32,000 nt of DNA from Pyrobaculum aerophilum str. IM2 (GTDB lineage Archaea; Thermoproteota; Thermoprotei; Thermoproteales; Thermoproteaceae). This document shows, one piece after another, positions 23,565-29,939 of this stretch. Under the pieces are notes generated by a model. The model saw nothing but the letters and a program-made list of their open reading frames with translations, did not search any database and was not told the origin of the DNA. How positions within the stretch are numbered: the stretch's first letter is position 1; the number at the start of each line of letters is the position of its first letter. The stretch spans positions 1,680,001 to 1,712,000 of the forward strand of contig NC_003364.1 of assembly GCF_000007225.1 (NCBI RefSeq), read 5' to 3'. The position numbers and the translations under genes are program-made.

Positions 23565-24560
23565 CTATGTGTTTATATATTTAATGTAGGGGAGGATTAG
23601 GTGTTCGTGTACTTGTCGCGGCGGTATGTTAAGCTTAACCGAATACTGGCCAAGCGGCGTGCCGCCGAGTTTAGTCAGCTCGTACGCGGCTAGCCCGACG
23701 ACGCAACTGCCCTGTCCGCATCTAACTACGATTTTATACGGCGGAGGGGGGTATATGTGAGCTATTAACGTCCCCCGGCTGTAATAGCTCCTGACCTCCA
23801 CCGCCATTCGCCCCGCCTCTACCACTGGGATGAAAGTCCTGGGGTGGAAGTTCTTAGCCCCCACTTTGGCCGCCTCAACGGCCTCTTGTACGGACAACAG
23901 CGGCAATACATAGGCCTCTTGCACCTCCCTGGGATCGGCCGTCATTACGCCTGGGGAGTCTGTGACTAAGGACACTTTCCTAGCCCCCAGCTCTTTGCCT
24001 ATATAAGTGGCCGTATAGTCGCTGCCGCCCCTCCCCACTGTGGTGAACCTGCCCTCTTTATCCCTTCCAATAAAGCCGGTGACGACAGCCACAGCGTCTG
24101 GCCGTGACATCTCCTCCTTATGCTCCAGCGCAATTGGCTCGGCGTTTCCGTAATTGCTATCTGTGAGCATCGGCGCGATGAAGAGCTTGGCCTCAATCCC
24201 CATTTTCTCAAGAACTGCGTGTAGCATTGTTGCTGAGAGCCTCTCGCCAAATGACGCGAAGTAGTCCGCAGACCACGGCGCGTGCGGAAGCCTTAGGGCG
24301 TACTCAAGCTCTTTTAACAAGGGGGCGATCCTCTCCTCCACCCCCAGCCCTCTGGCGATAGAGATGTGCCTATGTGCCAACTCCTCGTATAGCAAATAGC
24401 TCCTAGTTTTTTCAAGTTGTAACAATAAATCCGTCACGCCCTTTACCGCGGACACCACCACCACGGGGGGTTCGCTGTAAGCGGCTACAAAGTGGGCTGC
24501 TTGCACGAAGTCCGCGGCGGAGCGTAGGAGAGAGCCGCCTATTTTTACCACTGGTTTCAT
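23565..24560 (-). CDS. Aspartate kinase, short form (331 aa)
   Basis: Amino-acid kinase fold: VVKIGGSLL, VVVSAVKGVTD, RGGSDYTA and VMTADPR. Only about 60 aa follow the kinase domain. ATGA overlap with the thrC stop codon. Confidence 0.85.
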   Translation of the reverse strand: MKPVVKIGGSLLRSAADFVQAAHFVAAYSEPPVVVVSAVKGVTDLLLQLEKTRSYLLYEELAHRHISIARGLGVEERIAPLLKELEYALRLPHAPWSADYFASFGERLSATMLHAVLEKMGIEAKLFIAPMLTDSNYGNAEPIALEHKEEMSRPDAVAVVTGFIGRDKEGRFTTVGRGGSDYTATYIGKELGARKVSLVTDSPGVMTADPREVQEAYVLPLLSVQEAVEAAKVGAKNFHPRTFIPVVEAGRMAVEVRSYYSRGTLIAHIYPPPPYKIVVRCGQGSCVVGLAAYELTKLGGTPLGQYSVKLNIPPRQVHEHLILPYIKYINT

Positions 24561-25704
24561 TTTTCCAAAAGCTCTATCAGCTCGTCTGCATTTCTCACCT
24601 CCTTCGCTGTTATTTCTATAACGTCGGGGTCTTTCAGCGCATGGCCGGTTACCACGGCCACGGCTACTCCCCCTATATTTAATTTAATCGCCGCGGCTAT
24701 TGACGCGGCGCCCGCGGGCTCCGCCCCTATGCCGTCGCGAGTTGCCAAGAGCCTCTGCGCCTTTAATATCTCCCCGTCAGACACTTTTACGAAAAAGCCT
24801 CCTGACTCCTTCACGGCCCTCAGCGCCTTGGGCCAGTTTATAGGCCTGCCGATTTTAATTGCCGTCGCCACTGTGTTAGGCTCGTCTACAAAAAGCGGCT
24901 CCTCCACGCCGCGGGCCCAGGCCTCGACAAGCGGCGCCGCGCCCTCCGCCTGGACGCCCACCATTTTCGGCAGTTTATTACAAAGCCCCAGCTCGGCGAG
25001 TTCCCTAAACCCCTTCCATATAGCCGAGATATTCCCCGCGTTTCCCACTGGCACTATTACGTAGTCCGGACACCCCAGCTCTTCGTATATCTCAAAGGCC
25101 ACGGTCTTCTGCCCCTCCAGCCTCCACGGGTTAAAGCTGTTTAGAGGATATGCGTATTTTGTCCCGTAGTTAACCACGTAGTCAAGCGCCTTATCAAATA
25201 GGCCGTTTATCATAACAAGCTCAGCGCCGTGTAACGCCGCTTGTATTAACTTCCCCCTGGCCACATTGCCCTTGGGCAAAACTACATAACACCTAAGCCC
25301 AGCCCTAGCGGCGTAAGCCGCCGCAGAGGCCGCCGTGTTGCCAGTAGACGCCACGACGACTTTATTGGCGCCGCTCTCCTTGGCCACAGTCACGCCGAGG
25401 GCCATTCCCCGGTCTTTAAAACTTCCAGTTGGGTTAGCCCCTTCAAATTTTACATACAGATTCTCCGCCAGATTGGATTTCACCAGGGGGGTCCTCCCCT
25501 CTCCCAGGGATATCCCGCTTTTAAGAGGCAACATTGTTGAATAACGCCAGATCCCGTTGCCCTTTGGGGCCCAGACTTTATTACGAACTTCCACTTCAAG
25601 CAAGCCGCCACATTTAGGACATCTATATAGCCGGTAATCTGGGGCAAACCTCTCGCCGCAAGTTATACACTTAAGGCGTACATCGTCCCCGAAATCCCCG
25701 CCAT
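24557..25704 (-). CDS. thrC: Threonine synthase with an N-terminal zinc ribbon; the body frame has no start before TTG 25603, and the only upstream ATG (25704) is in the frame 1 nt downstream
   Basis: PLP-lysine block GANPTGSFKDRG and full-length TS similarity. The Zn ribbon LKCITCGERFAPDYRLYRCPKCGG is encoded in-frame upstream of the track start. ATG 25704 lies 18 nt after ATTATATATA. Confidence 0.85.
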
Positions 25705-25722
25705 GGCCTAAAAATGTTGAGG

Positions 25723-25759
25723 TATATATAATCTTTTTGCAGAAGAAAAACTTATATAG
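25723..25759. promoter_or_regulatory. Back-to-back divergent BRE/TATA elements for thrC (minus) and the lysX-like operon (plus)
   Basis: Minus strand: GCAAAAAG-ATTATATATA, then 18 nt, then ATG 25704. Plus strand: GAAGAAAAA-CTTATATA, then 19 nt, then ATG 25778. Confidence 0.55.
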
Positions 25760-25777
25760 AGGTTAAATGAGGGTGGC

Positions 25778-26451
25778 ATGGATCTGGGGCCAGAGGGGAA
25801 AGTGGGGCGATTTACGTCGTTACAGACAGCCCCACTGTATATGACAAGGTAATAGTTGACGCCCTATCCTCTAAAGGAAAAAGGGCATCTATTCTCAATG
25901 TCTCCGAAATTCCTGTCTATAAAATACGCGGAACAGCGCTACTCCGGCTGAGCAATCCGTACGCCGCGGTGATTTACGGCCAAGTTGCCGAGGCGAGTAT
26001 AAACCCGCCTGAGGCGATATCCTCAGCCTTAAATAGACTCGCTTGGATTTCTAAATTCGGCCCCCCTCACGTGATAATCTCCACGGACTATTCTGTGGAA
26101 AAAGTGGAGCTTGAAAGGCCGTGGTTTTTAATGACTGCTTGGAGGCTCGAAATAGACGGCTCTGTCACCAGCGTAGAGGGGGCGAGGAGCGTGTTAGAAC
26201 ACAGGATGTACATGAAAAACCCGCTATCTAAAGTCTCCTTAGTCGTTCCCAAGCCTCACAGAACGATATCTGTTTTCGCCACAGTGAAAAACGCCACCGG
26301 CCTCGTGTCTGAGGTGTTGAGCCACTTGGGCCTTTTATATGCGAGAGTAGTGCTGGGGGACTACGGCGGGAGACATTTCGTAATAGACGTCGACCCGGTG
26401 CCGAGGCTTGAAAACAAAGAAGAGGCTCTGGCGGTGGCGGAGTTGTTATGA
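25778..26451 (+). CDS. Divergent LysX/ArgX-like ATP-grasp homolog; the body frame lacks a start before GTG 25969, and ATG 25778 is in the frame 1 nt downstream
   Basis: The body frame, open from 25771, reads GAIYVVTDSPTVYDKVIVDALSSKG...INPPEAISSALNRLAWISKF...HRTISVFATV...GGRHFVIDVDPVPRLEN. This is collinear with LysX/RimK-type ATP-grasp proteins but about 60 aa shorter. ATGA overlap with argC. Confidence 0.55.
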
Positions 26452-27503
26452 AAGTCTGTATTATAGGAGCGTCGGGCTTTGTGGGCGGGGAGCTTTTGAG
26501 AATACTCTTGCAACACAGCGGCGTGGAGGTGGTCTGTGCCACTTCTAGAAGATTTAAGGGGGAGTATGTATACAGAGTTCACCCCAATCTGAGGGGGTTC
26601 ACCCAGTTGAAATTCGTAGAGCCCTCAATAGACGCGGCGTTGAAAGCCGATGTGGTATTCCTCGCGTTGCCGCACGGTGAGTCTGTCAAATGGGTCCCTA
26701 AGCTCTACGAGTCTGGCGTCGCGGTTTTTGACCTCAGCGCGGACTTCAGGCTGAAAGACCCCAACGCATATGTGGAGTGGTATAAGTGGCCGCAGCCTCA
26801 CCCCTATCCTGACCTTTTACAAAAAGCTGTGTACGGCCAGCCGGAGCTACACAGAAGCGAACTAGTAGGGGCTAAGCTCGTGGCAGTGCCCGGCTGTATG
26901 GCAACGGCGTCTATATTAATGCTGGCGCCTTTAGCTAAACACGGCTTGTTGGGAGAGACGCCGCCTGTGATAGACGCCAAAATTGGATCAAGCGGGGCTG
27001 GGGCTGAGGGGTCAGTGGTAGATCTCCACAGCTTTAGGACATATGTAGTGAGGCCCTACGAGCCCGTGCACCACCGCCACATAGCCGAAATTGAGCAAGA
27101 GCTCAGCCTCCTCGCGGGGAAAAGAGTTAAAGTGGCCTTCACCCCGCACGCAGTCGATATGGTCAGGGGGATTTTCGCCACAGGCCACGTCTTTGTGGAA
27201 AAAATGCCCACTGAGGCCGACATGTGGAAAATGTATAGATCTATGTACGGAGATTCTAAATTTATACGTATTGTAAAGGACAGATTGGGGATTTCCAGGT
27301 ATCCAAATGTAAAATACGTACTGGGTTCTAATTTTGTAGATATAGGCTTTGAGTTAGACCAGAGGCTTAATAGGCTGGTGACCTTCTCGGCTATAGACAA
27401 TTTAGTGAGGGGTGCCGCCGGGCAGGCAGTACAGGCTTTTAACGTGGCAATGGGCTTTCCCGAGGACGAGGGCCTTAGGTACATACCGCTGGCGCCAGTA
27501 TGA
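26448..27503 (+). CDS. argC: N-acetyl-gamma-glutamyl-phosphate reductase family enzyme (ArgC/LysY)
   Basis: [18 protein letters not shown] Rossmann motif, active-site PGCMATA, and C-terminal [13 protein letters not shown]. Confidence 0.9.
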
Positions 27504-28285
27504 TCGTCGTAAAAATTGGAGGATCGGTAGTGTGTAAAGACGCCTCAAAAGTTATTCAAAACCTCCCTAAATACGCAGATAGGGCTGTTGTTATACACGG
27601 AGGGGGGTGTCTGGTGAATGAGTTGTTAAAAAGAATGGGAATAGAGCCGAAGTTCTTGACGCACCCAGGCGGGCTTGTGAGCAGATATACCGACTGGGAG
27701 ACTTTGAAAGTCTTTGTAATGGCTATGGGCTGGATTAATAAATACATCGTCGCCTCTTTACACGGCCTCGGAGTCCAAGCCCTTGGCCTCACGGGGGCTG
27801 ATCTCGGCGTGGTAGTGGCCAAGCGCAAGGAGAGGGTTTTAGTTATCGACGAGAGGGGGAGGCAGAGGGTTGTGGACGGGGGATACGTGGGGAAAATCGC
27901 TGAAATACGCGTTGACAAATTAACGCCGCCTCCGCTGAAAGTCCTGGCCCCAGTAGCCGTGTCAGAAAAGGGAGAGCTTTTAAACATCGACGGGGACCAA
28001 CTGGCCTTTGACGTAGCGAGGGAGGCGAAGGCGGAGAGGCTTATTCTACTCAGCGACGTGGAAGGCCTCATCCTCGGGGGAAAAGTAGTGCCGCGCCTCA
28101 CACCTGAAGAGGCGGAGAAACTCGTAAAAAGCGAAGAGGTTAGGGGCGGCATGAAGAGAAAACTCCTCATGGCCTCTGAAGCGGCCAAGTTGGGAATTGA
28201 AGTAGTTATATCAAGCGGCCTGGTTGATTCCCCAATAGATGCGGCTCTTAACGGCGCTGGAACTCACATCATTAAAAACATATAG
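27500..28285 (+). CDS. argB: Acetylglutamate kinase family enzyme (ArgB/LysZ)
   Basis: [26 protein letters not shown] and GGMKRKL motifs. ATGA overlap with argC. Confidence 0.9.
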
Positions 28286-28355
28286 TACTTTATACAAGTT
28301 TTTAAAGAATATTAATAGAGAGTAAAGTTTATATACTAGTCTAAAATTTCTCTTT

Positions 28356-28541
28356 ATGGCAACCCAAAAACTAGTGGTTCAGTGCAAGGTGTGCGGAACG
28401 GAGTTTGAACTCCCCGAGGACGTCATGGACGGGGAAATTGCCAGTTGTCCCACATGCGGAGCCCGTTATATTGTGAGACTTAAAGGCGGGTCTGTCACGT
28501 TGGAGGAGTTTAAGGGAGATGTGGAGGACTATGGAGAGTAA
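28356..28541 (+). CDS. lysW: LysW-type amino-group carrier protein (61 aa)
   Basis: Zinc ribbon CKVCG...CPTCG plus the acidic C-terminal tail EDYGE (canonical EDWGE). ATG about 19 nt after GTTTATATAC. Confidence 0.85.
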   Translation: MATQKLVVQCKVCGTEFELPEDVMDGEIASCPTCGARYIVRLKGGSVTLEEFKGDVEDYGE

Positions 28542-29735
28542 GTCGGGGCGAGCAAGATAGTACTGGCCTACTCCGGAGGCCTAGACACCACAGTTGCAGT
28601 TAAGTGGCTCTCTGAGAAATTCGGCGCCGAGGTCTACACCGTTACAGTAGACGTTGGGCAAGAAGACGACTTTTCAAAAATAGAGGAGAGAGCTTATAAA
28701 GCGGGGGCTGTTCAACATTTTTACATAGACGCTAAGAGGGAATTTGCCGAGGAGTACATAGCCAGGGCGATATTAATGAACGGCATGTACGAGGGAGTAT
28801 ACCCCCTGGGCACTGCCCTAGCCAGGCCTCTAATTGCGGCGAAAGTCGTTGAGGTTGCCCGGAGGCTGGGGGCCGACGCGGTGGCGCACGGCTCCACTAG
28901 TAAGGGCAATGACCAGGTTAGATTCGACGTTACTGTAAAGGCCCTGGCGCCCGACCTCAAGATAATCGCGCCGGCCAGGATCTGGGGAATGACGAGGGCT
29001 GAGGAAATCGAATACGCCAAACGCCACGGCTTGCCAGTGGGCGAGGAGCATAAAAAGTACAGCATAGACGACAACCTCTGGTCTAGGTCAATAGAGGGGG
29101 GACCTATCGACGACCCCCTTGCAGAGCCCCCTGAAGATGCATTCAAATGGACGGTGTCTCCCGACAAAGCGCCGCACGACCCCACTTATTTAACTATCGA
29201 ATTTGAGAAGGGGCTCCCCGTGGCAGTGAACGGAGAGAAGATGAGCCTCGCGTCCATTATTTCATTGCTCAACCACGTCGGGGGCGCTAACGGCGTGGGG
29301 AGAATCGACCACATTGAGAACAGACTAGTGGGGTTTAAAAGCCGGGAGGTATACGAGGCCCCTGCGGCTGTTATACTCTATCACGCCCATAGAGACTTGG
29401 AAAAAATGGTCTTAACGCCTAGGGAGCTTCGCTTTAAGCACTACGTCCTAGACCCCCAGTGGGCTGACTTAGTCTACCAGGGCCTCTGGGTAGAGCCCCT
29501 CCGCAACGCCCTGGAGAAAGCCGCTGAGGAAATGGAGAGGTGGGTAAGCGGGGAAGTGAGAGTGAAGTTGTACAAGGGGTCTTTGTGGGTGGTGGGAAGG
29601 GAGTCTCCTTACGGCGGGTATAGCAAAGAGTTAGCCGATTACAGCGCCGGGTGGTATCCAAGCGACGAGGAGGCCAGGGGGTTTATTGAGATGTGGAGCC
29701 TCCACTCCCTCACAGCCCTCCGCCGTAGAAAATAG
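28531..29735 (+). CDS. argG: Argininosuccinate synthase; the enzyme frame is open from 28542 but has no canonical start before 28776, and ATG 28531 is in the frame 1 nt downstream
   Basis: The in-frame N-terminus [20 protein letters not shown] (ATP pyrophosphatase motif) is encoded at 28551 onward, upstream of the track start. [12 protein letters not shown] and the rest are intact. GGAGG lies 3 nt before ATG 28531, which overlaps the lysW end. Confidence 0.85.
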
Positions 29736-29783: not shown

Positions 29784-29939
29784 ATGGGGCAAAGAACTGT
29801 GGTGTGTCCAAATTGCAAAAAACCGGTGAAACCCGTGGAGTGTAACAGAAAAAACCAAACGAGGCGCTACGTGGTTATTACCTACTGCTGTCCTAAATGC
29901 GGAACAGAACTATTAACTGAGAGGGTTGAGGTACACTAA
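29784..29939 (+). CDS. Small basic zinc-ribbon protein (51 aa), not in the ORF track
   Basis: MGQRTVVCPNCKKPVKPVECNRKNQTRRYVVITYCCPKCGTELLTERVEVH. CPNC..CPKC knuckles. ATG 18 nt after GGTTTTATATTG. The stop TAA overlaps the argH ATG (TAATG). Confidence 0.5.
   Translation: MGQRTVVCPNCKKPVKPVECNRKNQTRRYVVITYCCPKCGTELLTERVEVH

Follow-up and report, generated by a model that had tools for sequence, protein, structure and literature searches.

How translation begins at three genes for amino acid biosynthesis is the question raised by a 32,000 nucleotide (nt) stretch of DNA from Pyrobaculum aerophilum str. IM2 (GCF_000007225.1, NC_003364.1:1,680,001-1,712,000, forward strand), which was analysed in full and is termed the window below. 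In thrC, in a lysX-like gene and in argG, an ATG codon opens a mini-open reading frame (mini-ORF) of only 9-24 codons, and three-frame translation places the body of the enzyme in the -1 frame, where no ATG, GTG or TTG is available at the N-terminus. Reading of these sequences and their relatives gives us high confidence that an obligatory and conserved -1 recoding event would be needed at all three genes. As the best explanation for this event we favour, with more confidence than doubt, a set of leaders in which -1 frameshifting would respond to the supply of amino acids.

The initial annotation of this DNA had described the mini-ORF ATG and the start-less -1 body shared by the three genes, and this layout was borne out by direct reading, by translation and by a mechanical scan of the whole window. 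The scan sought an ATG mini-ORF of no more than 45 codons with NNG GGG in phase, together with a -1 ORF that is 150 codons or longer and lacks an upstream canonical start; thrC, the lysX-like gene and argG were returned, and no other gene. Six tracts of four G residues (G4) are present in the three mini-ORFs, all phased NNG GGG, and on direct reading both the tracts and the codons that would next occupy the A site are the same as those listed in the annotation. The elements of the leaders and the enzyme bodies that they precede are as follows.

25663..25704, minus strand: thrC leader mini-ORF, 0 frame, M A G I S G T M Y A L S V stop.
25693..25701, minus strand: Ile module GCG GGG ATT; 0-frame A-site codon ATT (Ile), -1 codon GAT (Asp).
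25684..25692, minus strand: Thr module TCG GGG ACG; 0-frame A-site codon for Thr, -1 codon GAC (Asp).
24557..25701, minus strand: threonine synthase body, -1 frame (containing GDFGDDVRLKCITCGERF); TIGR00260 thrC, 1.1e-79; Pfam PALP.
25778..25852, plus strand: lysX leader mini-ORF, 0 frame, 24 codons and a TAA (25850-52).
25784..25792, plus strand: Pro module CTG GGG CCA; NNG GGG CCA in 16/17 lysX leaders.
25793..25801, plus strand: Lys module GAG GGG AAA; NNG GGG AAA in 15/17 lysX leaders.
25802..25810, plus strand: Arg module GTG GGG CGA; NNG GGG CGA in 16/17 lysX leaders.
25786..26451, plus strand: body of a divergent LysX/ArgX-like ligase, -1 frame (containing GAIYVVTDSPTV); first gene of its operon.
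28531..28560, plus strand: argG leader mini-ORF, 0 frame, M E S K S G R A R stop.
28543..28551, plus strand: argG Arg module TCG GGG CGA; the sole slippery sequence within the permitted shift interval.
28542..29735, plus strand: argininosuccinate synthase body, -1 frame; NF001770, 6.6e-167.

Written as codons, the mini-ORF of thrC (ATG 25704-25702) is ATG GCG GGG ATT TCG GGG ACG ATG TAC GCC TTA AGT GTA TAA, that of the lysX-like gene (ATG 25778) begins ATG GAT CTG GGG CCA GAG GGG AAA GTG GGG CGA, and that of argG (ATG 28531) is ATG GAG AGT AAG TCG GGG CGA GCA AGA TAG. In thrC the body frame is open as far back as 25762; the first canonical start codon in it, TTG 25603, lies within the conserved N-terminal zinc-ribbon region. 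For the lysX-like gene the body frame is open from 25771 with its first canonical start at GTG 25969, and in the body frame of argG the first such codon is ATG 28776. The annotation had described the body frame as open across the mini-ORF in all three cases. This is correct for thrC and the lysX-like gene, but not for argG, where the TAA stop codon of the preceding lysW gene (28539-41) falls in that frame. Because this TAA lies in the -1 frame and a TAG closes the 0 frame, the argG shift must be confined to the 16 nt between 28542 and 28557.

For comparison with related organisms, a scan for ArgC with one genome per species supplied 15 Pyrobaculum and Thermoproteus loci, to which we added P. 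islandicum (found by protein look-up) and one metagenome contig. In total 41 leaders were compared, comprising 9 from thrC, 17 from lysX and 15 from argG, with finished genomes included; the tally of codons and phase covers 40. The layout is present in every functional ortholog looked at in Pyrobaculum and Thermoproteus, including those of the finished P. islandicum, P. oguniense and Pyrobaculum sp. WP30 genomes. Relative to the upstream ATG, 76/76 G4 tracts in the 40 leaders are phased NNG GGG, and leader length varies between species by multiples of three without exception. Ten different triplets precede GGG across the leaders, TCG, GCG, ACG, CTG, GAG and GTG among them, with only the last G fixed. 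The codon after GGG in the 0 frame is ACA (7), ACG (2) or ATT (6) in thrC leaders, CCA (16), CGA (16) or AAA (15) in lysX leaders, and CGA in all 14 tallied argG leaders. Thus the mini-ORF, the -1 offset, the phase of the tracts and the identity of the next codon, all first noted in the window, are kept across the two genera. They are kept also where argG is leaderless rather than located behind lysW, and where the lysX modules are permuted.

The conserved pattern takes a particular form at each gene. At thrC, an ATG mini-ORF of 10-13 codons is kept in nine genomes; TCG GGG ACR occurs 1-4 codons after the ATG in 9/9 functional leaders, and the Ile module, as NNG GGG ATT, stands just before it in six of these nine. 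The Pyrobaculum form of the lysX leader has the codons given above for the window, with modules in the order Pro-Lys-Arg, and the first 33 nt are 94.7% identical among 11 Pyrobaculum genomes, compared with 67.9% over the next 150 nt. The Thermoproteus form (ATG .. TCG GGG AAA GCG GGG CCA GCG GGG CGA) carries the same three post-GGG codons in the permuted order Lys-Pro-Arg, with different spacer codons. Some lineages have fewer modules: locus L004 is without the Pro module, L010 without the Lys module, and L015 has the Pro module only. At argG, (T/A)CG GGG CGA follows soon after an out-of-frame ATG in 15/15 genomes; CGGGGCGA is unvarying in 14/14 tallied leaders and is also found in L093, and the body-frame Ala codon at the module is GCG in all. 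In three Thermoproteus genomes argG is located away from lysW, and there it has a six-codon leaderless leader, ATG CCN TCG GGG CGA AGA TAA (M P S G R R). A metagenome scan with a Thermoproteus ArgG query found one close relative, with the same leader.

More distant relatives have plain in-frame starts. The outgroup lysX begins simply (MRVAIVYD..) in two metagenome-assembled genomes (MAGs) of Thermoproteaceae and with an in-frame ATG in Thermocladium; the outgroup argG start is TTG in Thermocladium, and in five metagenome outgroups it is an ATG or GTG 3-6 codons before VVLAYSGG. From this distribution, the frameshift-leader device appears to have been derived within the Pyrobaculum-Thermoproteus clade.

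Several controls address the quality of the sequence and the weight to be given to the conserved tracts. The ArgC protein of the window is found exactly on 22 contigs from independent projects, and in six assemblies of the same species (NCBI MAG, ENA, JGI and three from Logan SRA) the G4 tracts are identical wherever the region is on a contig. A fixed tract of five G residues (G5), with which these would be ordinary in-frame genes, is found in none of the six assemblies and in 0/41 leaders. ORFs of 816, 670, 651 and 562 codons for amino acids run uninterrupted in the window, confirming that the large neighbouring genes are intact, as had been pointed out at the outset. The enzymes themselves are highly conserved (orthologs 75-81% identical for ThrC and 79-94% for ArgC), tract lengths are constant, and only one thrC copy has decayed. 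That copy belongs to the closest relative of the window, a Pyrobaculum MAG (L001) whose ArgC is 94% identical, and only about 83 of its residues align, at 49% identity. This decayed gene (L001:2950-3245, minus strand) has lost a zinc-ribbon cysteine together with the leader ATG and the G_GGG modules, and the adjacent lysX leader is intact.

Conservation of the leader modules also stands apart from the behaviour of similar sites elsewhere. Among the 196 G4 tracts in ordinary genes of the window, 90 share the NNG GGG phase. Within the bodies of thrC, lysX, argC, argB and argG there are 27 in-phase G_GGG sites; of 301 ortholog comparisons, 28% retain the site and 10% retain it together with the codon that follows. 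Leader modules keep the same next codon in 41/45 comparisons for lysX and in 12/12 for argG. A single in-phase G_GGG_CGA occurs in the ordinary genes of the window (GCG GGG CGA, within ask at 23808-23815, minus strand), and it is kept in 0/7 orthologs. Amino acid frequencies in the window sample are 6.3% for Arg, 4.5% for Thr, 6.1% for Lys and 5.1% for Pro. A rough, post hoc estimate of the chance that the universal codon would be Arg for argG and Thr for thrC, and that all three lysX codons would belong to the set Lys, Arg and Pro, is about 1e-5.

Promoter elements and the genes downstream indicate how the leaders would be transcribed and which products they would control.

25723..25731, minus strand: promoter TATA box for thrC-ask-asd (TTATATATA); its end lies 18 nt before the leader ATG.
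25752..25758, plus strand: TATA box TTATATA of the lysX-lysY-lysZ promoter, about 19 nt upstream of the leader ATG.
23565-24560, minus strand: aspartate kinase (ask), downstream of thrC; Pfam AA_kinase.
22533-23552, minus strand: aspartate-semialdehyde dehydrogenase (asd), after ask; Pfam Semialdhyde_dh.
26448-27503, plus strand: lysY/argC; TIGR01850 argC; start overlaps the preceding stop.
27500-28285, plus strand: lysZ/argB; [LysW]-aminoadipate/[LysW]-glutamate kinase model; start overlaps the preceding stop.
28356..28541, plus strand: lysW carrier-protein gene; PF21344, NF041070; own TATA box, with upstream sequence aaagtttatata.

The geometry from TATA box to ATG implies that the thrC mRNA is leaderless, and the spacing is that of ordinary leaderless genes of the window (lysW and a zinc-ribbon gene). 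Boxes resembling AAAGNTTTATATA stand at an equal distance in every lysX ortholog. From this geometry, the leader ATGs of thrC and lysX are very probably the 5'-terminal codons of leaderless mRNAs. Other ATGs near the lysX TATA box were considered as starts and rejected; their frames differ among species, with all three seen, and they are too near the TATA box for transcription.

Stops and starts overlap or adjoin throughout thrC-ask-asd. In a metagenome assembly with an identical ArgC (L082:821-2147), genes for PaREP1, nucleotidyltransferase and HEPN proteins are located beside lysX in place of thrC-ask-asd, an arrangement that points to strain-level rearrangement at the divergent thrC/lysX promoter. 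The identification of the first gene of the other operon as lysX-like holds at the level of a profile only. The protein has no Pfam or NCBIfam match, and a profile built from it and its relatives matches Sulfolobus ArgX (PDB 3vpb, E=1.5e-5) and RimK-type ATP-grasp proteins. Within its leader, an inverted repeat (GTGGGGC ... GCCCCAC, 20-nt loop, 25802-25808/25829-25835, plus strand) pairs the third slip site with conserved DSPT codons; a similar GGGGCG/CGCCCC pairing occurs in Thermoproteus locus L012 and is imperfect or absent in L004, L010 and L015. Also in L012, from a Thermoproteus sp. AZ2 MAG, an M20-peptidase gene (lysK/argE-like; L012:2990-3060, minus strand) is divergent from lysX and needs a -1 shift at AGG GGG CCG in mid-gene (..VWGRG then AVDDKGPLA..), not in a 5' leader. 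In the one genome looked at, this frame break could reflect either a mistake in assembly or a true mutation.

The argG leader has a different setting, as the last 11 nt of lysW overlap it. The GGAGG noted upstream of the argG ATG is indeed present, but it lies inside the coding sequence of lysW, which has its own TATA box. A second in-frame ATG upstream of argG, at 28519, is peculiar to the window. Near the end of lysW (28498-28530, plus strand), TTTAAGG (TTTAAAGG in relatives) is located approximately 20-25 nt upstream of the argG ATG; it resembles the thrC TATA boxes of L002 and L004, and it also codes for the conserved LysW motif EEFKGD. It is conceivable, from the sequence, that an internal promoter in lysW yields a leaderless argG mRNA. 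Between argG and argH there is a 51-codon ORF for a four-cysteine zinc-ribbon protein (MGQRTVVCPNCKKPV...CCPKCGTEL..; 29784-29939, plus strand) with its own TATA box. Its stop codon abuts the ATG of argH, and the ORF is called at the same place in other assemblies and in P. islandicum (59 amino acids).

A mechanism that would account for the conserved features can be outlined. Translation would initiate at the mini-ORF ATG, which is 5'-terminal for thrC and lysX and overlaps the lysW stop codon for Pyrobaculum argG. A GGG codon with a G before it would reach the P site within 3-11 codons. There, peptidyl-tRNA-Gly should pair equally well with the GGG one base back, and the register would be set by whichever A-site codon is decoded first. 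The 0-frame choice would be a codon for an end product of the pathway, namely Thr or Ile for thrC-ask-asd, Lys, Arg or Pro for the LysW-pathway operon, and Arg for argG. The -1 choice is dictated by the sequence as GAC or GAT (Asp), GAA (Glu), or GCG or GCC (Ala), and its decoding would lock the ribosome into the enzyme frame. With ample cognate aminoacyl-tRNA, the ribosome would keep the 0 frame and stop a few codons on without making enzyme; with scarce cognate aminoacyl-tRNA, the empty A site would permit the -1 slip and the enzyme would be made. Downstream genes, translationally coupled through overlapping stops and starts, would be made along with it, and serial modules would act as an OR gate. 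Under this slip model the junction peptides would be MAGISGDDVR or MAGDFGDDVR for thrC, MDLGARGESGAIY.., MDLGPEGESGAIY.. or MDLGPEGKVGAIYVVTDSPTVYDK for lysX, and MESKSGASK for argG. The sensor of this kind proposed in the initial annotation is supported by the comparisons of assemblies and orthologs; the slip itself and its response to amino acid supply stay predictions from sequence.

Some properties of the codons bear on how such a sensor might operate. Of the six sensor codons, four are A-ending (AAA, CCA, CGA and ACA), the others being ACG and ATT; in archaea, A-ending codons are generally read by a single UNN isoacceptor. The LysW pathway serves lysine as well as ornithine/arginine synthesis in Sulfolobus and Thermococcus, and proline may be derived from ornithine in the organisms studied here. 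The -1 codons that compete with Thr or Ile (Asp) and with Lys (Glu) code for precursors of these amino acids, which follows from the genetic code and is of uncertain relevance. Either slippage would be rare save during long stalls, or it would be aided by context, for which the candidates are nearness to the start codon, a preference for NCG before GGG, and Shine-Dalgarno (SD)-like pairing of upstream G tracts 9 nt apart. A G-quadruplex was dropped as a candidate, its fourth G run being upstream of the likely transcription start.

A number of observations weigh against amino-acid-responsive frameshifting and must be set beside it. In-phase NNG GGG is frequent in ordinary genes (90 per 8,384 codons), including before ACG, AAA, ATT and CCA, so either the tetramer and codon are not very shifty alone or the cost is tolerated; in E. 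coli, Z_ZZN tetramers alone are hardly shifty (PMC4066793). A conserved stimulator was sought in the leaders and none was found, and predicted folds of the first 90 nt differ among orthologs, with most z-scores between -2 and +1 relative to shuffled sequences. Canonical body-frame starts do occur in a few lineages (ATG in L010 thrC and TTG in L004 thrC), and in some lysX genes a GTG or ATG stands in the body frame beside the TATA box. None of ACR, AAA, CCA and ATT is a rare codon. The proposed link of proline to LysW and ornithine comes from the general picture of ornithine cyclodeaminase routes in archaea. Finally, the rule that relates codon to pathway was drawn from three transcription units.

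These points give substance to other explanations of the same layout. Perhaps the ribosome slips at G_GGG at a constant rate, keeping expression low, and the match between codon and product is coincidental or reflects codons that are slow in general. Setting a fixed ratio is the commonest use of programmed frameshifting (PMC5009743), and CGA, the rarest Arg codon in the window ORF sample (13/524, 2.5%), could leave the A site slow to fill even without starvation. Rarity is no explanation for the other sensor codons, however, and neither the low chance of the codon match nor the survival of all three lysX codons through a permutation of modules is expected of a constitutive slip, which we regard as rather unlikely. 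The main rival was suggested by work in E. coli, in which the signal from a G_GGG sequence was ascribed to SD-like initiation at a -1-frame AUA 7 nt downstream (PMC4066793), a result that itself tells against slippage. By analogy, the enzymes could be initiated in the body frame at AUA, AUU, AUC, CUG or a similar codon, with the G tracts acting as SD-like elements and the mini-ORF as an overlapping upstream ORF. In argG, ATA, ATT, ATC or GTA is found 5-8 nt past the tract and, in lysX, ATT or ATC just past the third tract, and GenBank and MAG annotations give argG ATC or ATA starts. Yet an SD role needs no phase with an upstream ATG, and the tracts are invariably in phase, with length changes of triplets only. 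The invariance of the next codon and the lysX permutation would be left unexplained; in thrC no start-like codon is conserved in the stretch from the Thr module to the first zinc-ribbon cysteine (CTT, TTA, CTA, CTG, TTG and ATG are seen), and the candidate codon in argG varies to include GTA. For these reasons we consider initiation at non-canonical codons improbable.

The frame might instead be restored in the RNA, by polymerase slippage or editing that adds one G to a G4 tract and gives an in-frame mRNA. Transcriptional slippage does restore frames in some bacterial and viral genes (PMC5009743), and the tracts are near the start of transcription, but known slippage needs longer runs, mostly of A or T (PMC5009743), and the 196 G4 runs in the sampled ordinary ORFs would all suffer. 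Such correction would give no part to the conservation of the next codon or to tract phase, and Pyrobaculum argG is far from a 5' end unless an internal promoter is present; we judge this explanation very improbable. Artefact or decay, in the form of homopolymer miscalls, G tracts unstable in one strain, or pseudogenes, has almost no probability in the face of identical tracts in six assemblies and in finished genomes of several species, the absence of G5 alleles, and strong purifying selection on the enzymes; the truly decayed thrC copy looks quite unlike the genes that bear leaders. The tract-length error and DNA-level variation of G tracts left open by the initial annotation are thereby excluded. 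In favour of tract instability, the P. aerophilum genome paper is said to report unstable G/C mononucleotide tracts. Approximately 9 kb beyond the left window end, a molybdopterin oxidoreductase is represented by ORFs of 695 and 369 amino acids in one same-species assembly (L091:11161-14357, NCBI MAG) and by 1,062 in another (L092:11170-14358, ENA), a frameshift difference between the two.

The extent of the amino-acid-responsive -1 frameshift leaders was explored in the window and in 25 related loci, where a scan for the architecture gave only noise besides the thrC, lysX and argG families. The genes hom and argH and a Thermoproteus lysK have ordinary starts. Within 10 kb beyond each window end there are no further biosynthetic genes, and none were seen by Pfam annotation of the flanks of the other loci. 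No Rfam family was matched at E<=1, and no tRNA gene was found in the window. A broader Thermoproteaceae class of 'frameshift attenuators', defined by leaderless mini-ORFs, G_GGG_NNN modules and tRNA competition and forming a genome-wide regulon (his, trp, ilv/leu, aro and others) in which every operon would have cognate codons of its own, is a sequence-based prediction on which we are evenly divided.

If real, frameshift leaders would explain why the starts and lengths of lysX and argG are mis-annotated in public records. Gene callers give inconsistent, truncated or non-canonical starts even in same-species assemblies (thrC 325-369 amino acids, lysX 160-186, argG 319-392), and public annotations include 'hypothetical proteins' of 148-230 amino acids for lysX (P0002, P0005) and argG products of 319-400, some from ATC or ATA starts. 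In P. islandicum CP000504 (L090:5995-6010, 8786), argG is called from an ATC right after the lysW stop, and lysX from a GTG abutting the TATA box.

These leaders bear on how archaea adjust amino acid synthesis to demand during translation. To our knowledge, archaea are without bacterial leader-peptide attenuators and T-boxes. If the proposal is correct, each leader would be a direct sensor of charged tRNA that works without a protein factor and costs about 10 nt per amino acid. It would constitute the first natural use of hungry-codon frameshifting for regulation, would give archaea an equivalent of bacterial attenuation, would establish slip sites made only of G as workable at approximately 100 °C, and would offer a compact and portable design for synthetic amino acid sensors. 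No prior description of these leaders was found in the literature searched, although an account in a subscription journal is conceivable; a GeneTack survey of 1,106 genomes, 23 of them crenarchaeal, leaves these genes unmentioned (PMC3711429).

The closest functional parallel is leader-peptide attenuation in bacteria, as at thrL, trpL, hisL and pheL, where a short 5' ORF carries codons for the end product, the speed of the ribosome reports charged tRNA, and one leader can respond to several amino acids. The thr leader of E. coli, for example, combines Thr and Ile codons. Bacterial attenuators employ runs of codons, a separate leader, terminator and antiterminator hairpins, and transcription read-through. 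In contrast, the leaders described here would use one sensor codon per module and a change of frame, in an archaeal host whose mRNAs are mostly leaderless. They have no consistent structure or Rfam leader, and because the mini-ORF overlaps the structural gene there is no spacer in which alternative hairpins could form. Cysteine-responsive leaderless short ORFs of mycobacteria likewise stand first in a biosynthetic operon and contain codons for the amino acid under control, but they are bacterial, are separate from the enzyme gene, and are described as attenuators of downstream expression rather than as frameshift sites (bioRxiv 10.1101/834739).

Closer in mechanism are the +1 sensors of prfB (RF2) and antizyme, in which the ribosome has to leave a short 5' ORF, through P-site tRNA slippage, before the full-length product can be made, as we infer for thrC, lysX and argG. 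The slip probability in those systems is set by the speed of A-site decoding, which reports the product or a metabolite and so provides feedback (PMC5009743). They differ in shifting +1 at a stop codon (CUU_UGA or UCC_UGA) instead of -1 at G_GGG before a sense codon. The Pyrobaculum and Thermoproteus leaders would sense amino acid supply through serial modules, and no SD-like, pseudoknot or nascent-peptide stimulator was identified in them. Archaeal ribosomes are documented to shift -1 between overlapping ORFs in haloarchaeal tail-assembly genes and haloviruses, in magnesium chelatase of Methanococcales, and possibly in Sulfolobus (PMC5009743, PMC3711429). For archaea, the 2016 recoding review (PMC5009743) names no examples beyond haloviruses, magnesium chelatase and the possible Sulfolobus ones. 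Those cases involve A-rich heptamers (A_AAA_AAR, G_GGA_AAC) in mid-gene that join domains or make two products, whereas in the window leaders the slip site, among the first 11 codons, is a tetramer of G alone and the 0-frame product is a dead-end peptide.

With canonical -1 signals the 41 leaders share overlapping ORFs, the downstream one in the -1 frame without an independent start. They lack the canonical heptamer X_XXY_YYZ, as only G_GGG is conserved and the following codon is unable to re-pair in the -1 frame. What they do share with slippage by a single tRNA is a P-site codon that can re-pair cognately one base 5', which is true of 76/76 tracts. In hungry-codon, dnaX and HIV-1 examples of such slippage, under limitation of aminoacyl-tRNA, an empty A site lets the peptidyl-tRNA re-pair. 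Frameshifting at slow A-site codons is documented in E. coli (PMC5009743), and in HIV-1 the efficiency of frameshifting depends on how abundant the Leu-tRNA for the slippery-site UUA is (PMC6547452). A review in 2016 stated that 'no examples are known' of natural hungry-codon frameshifting that makes starvation-specific trans-frame proteins (PMC5009743). The earlier cases are constructs, errors or viral side routes; here, by contrast, slippage next to a hungry codon would be the sole route to three housekeeping enzymes in two genera.

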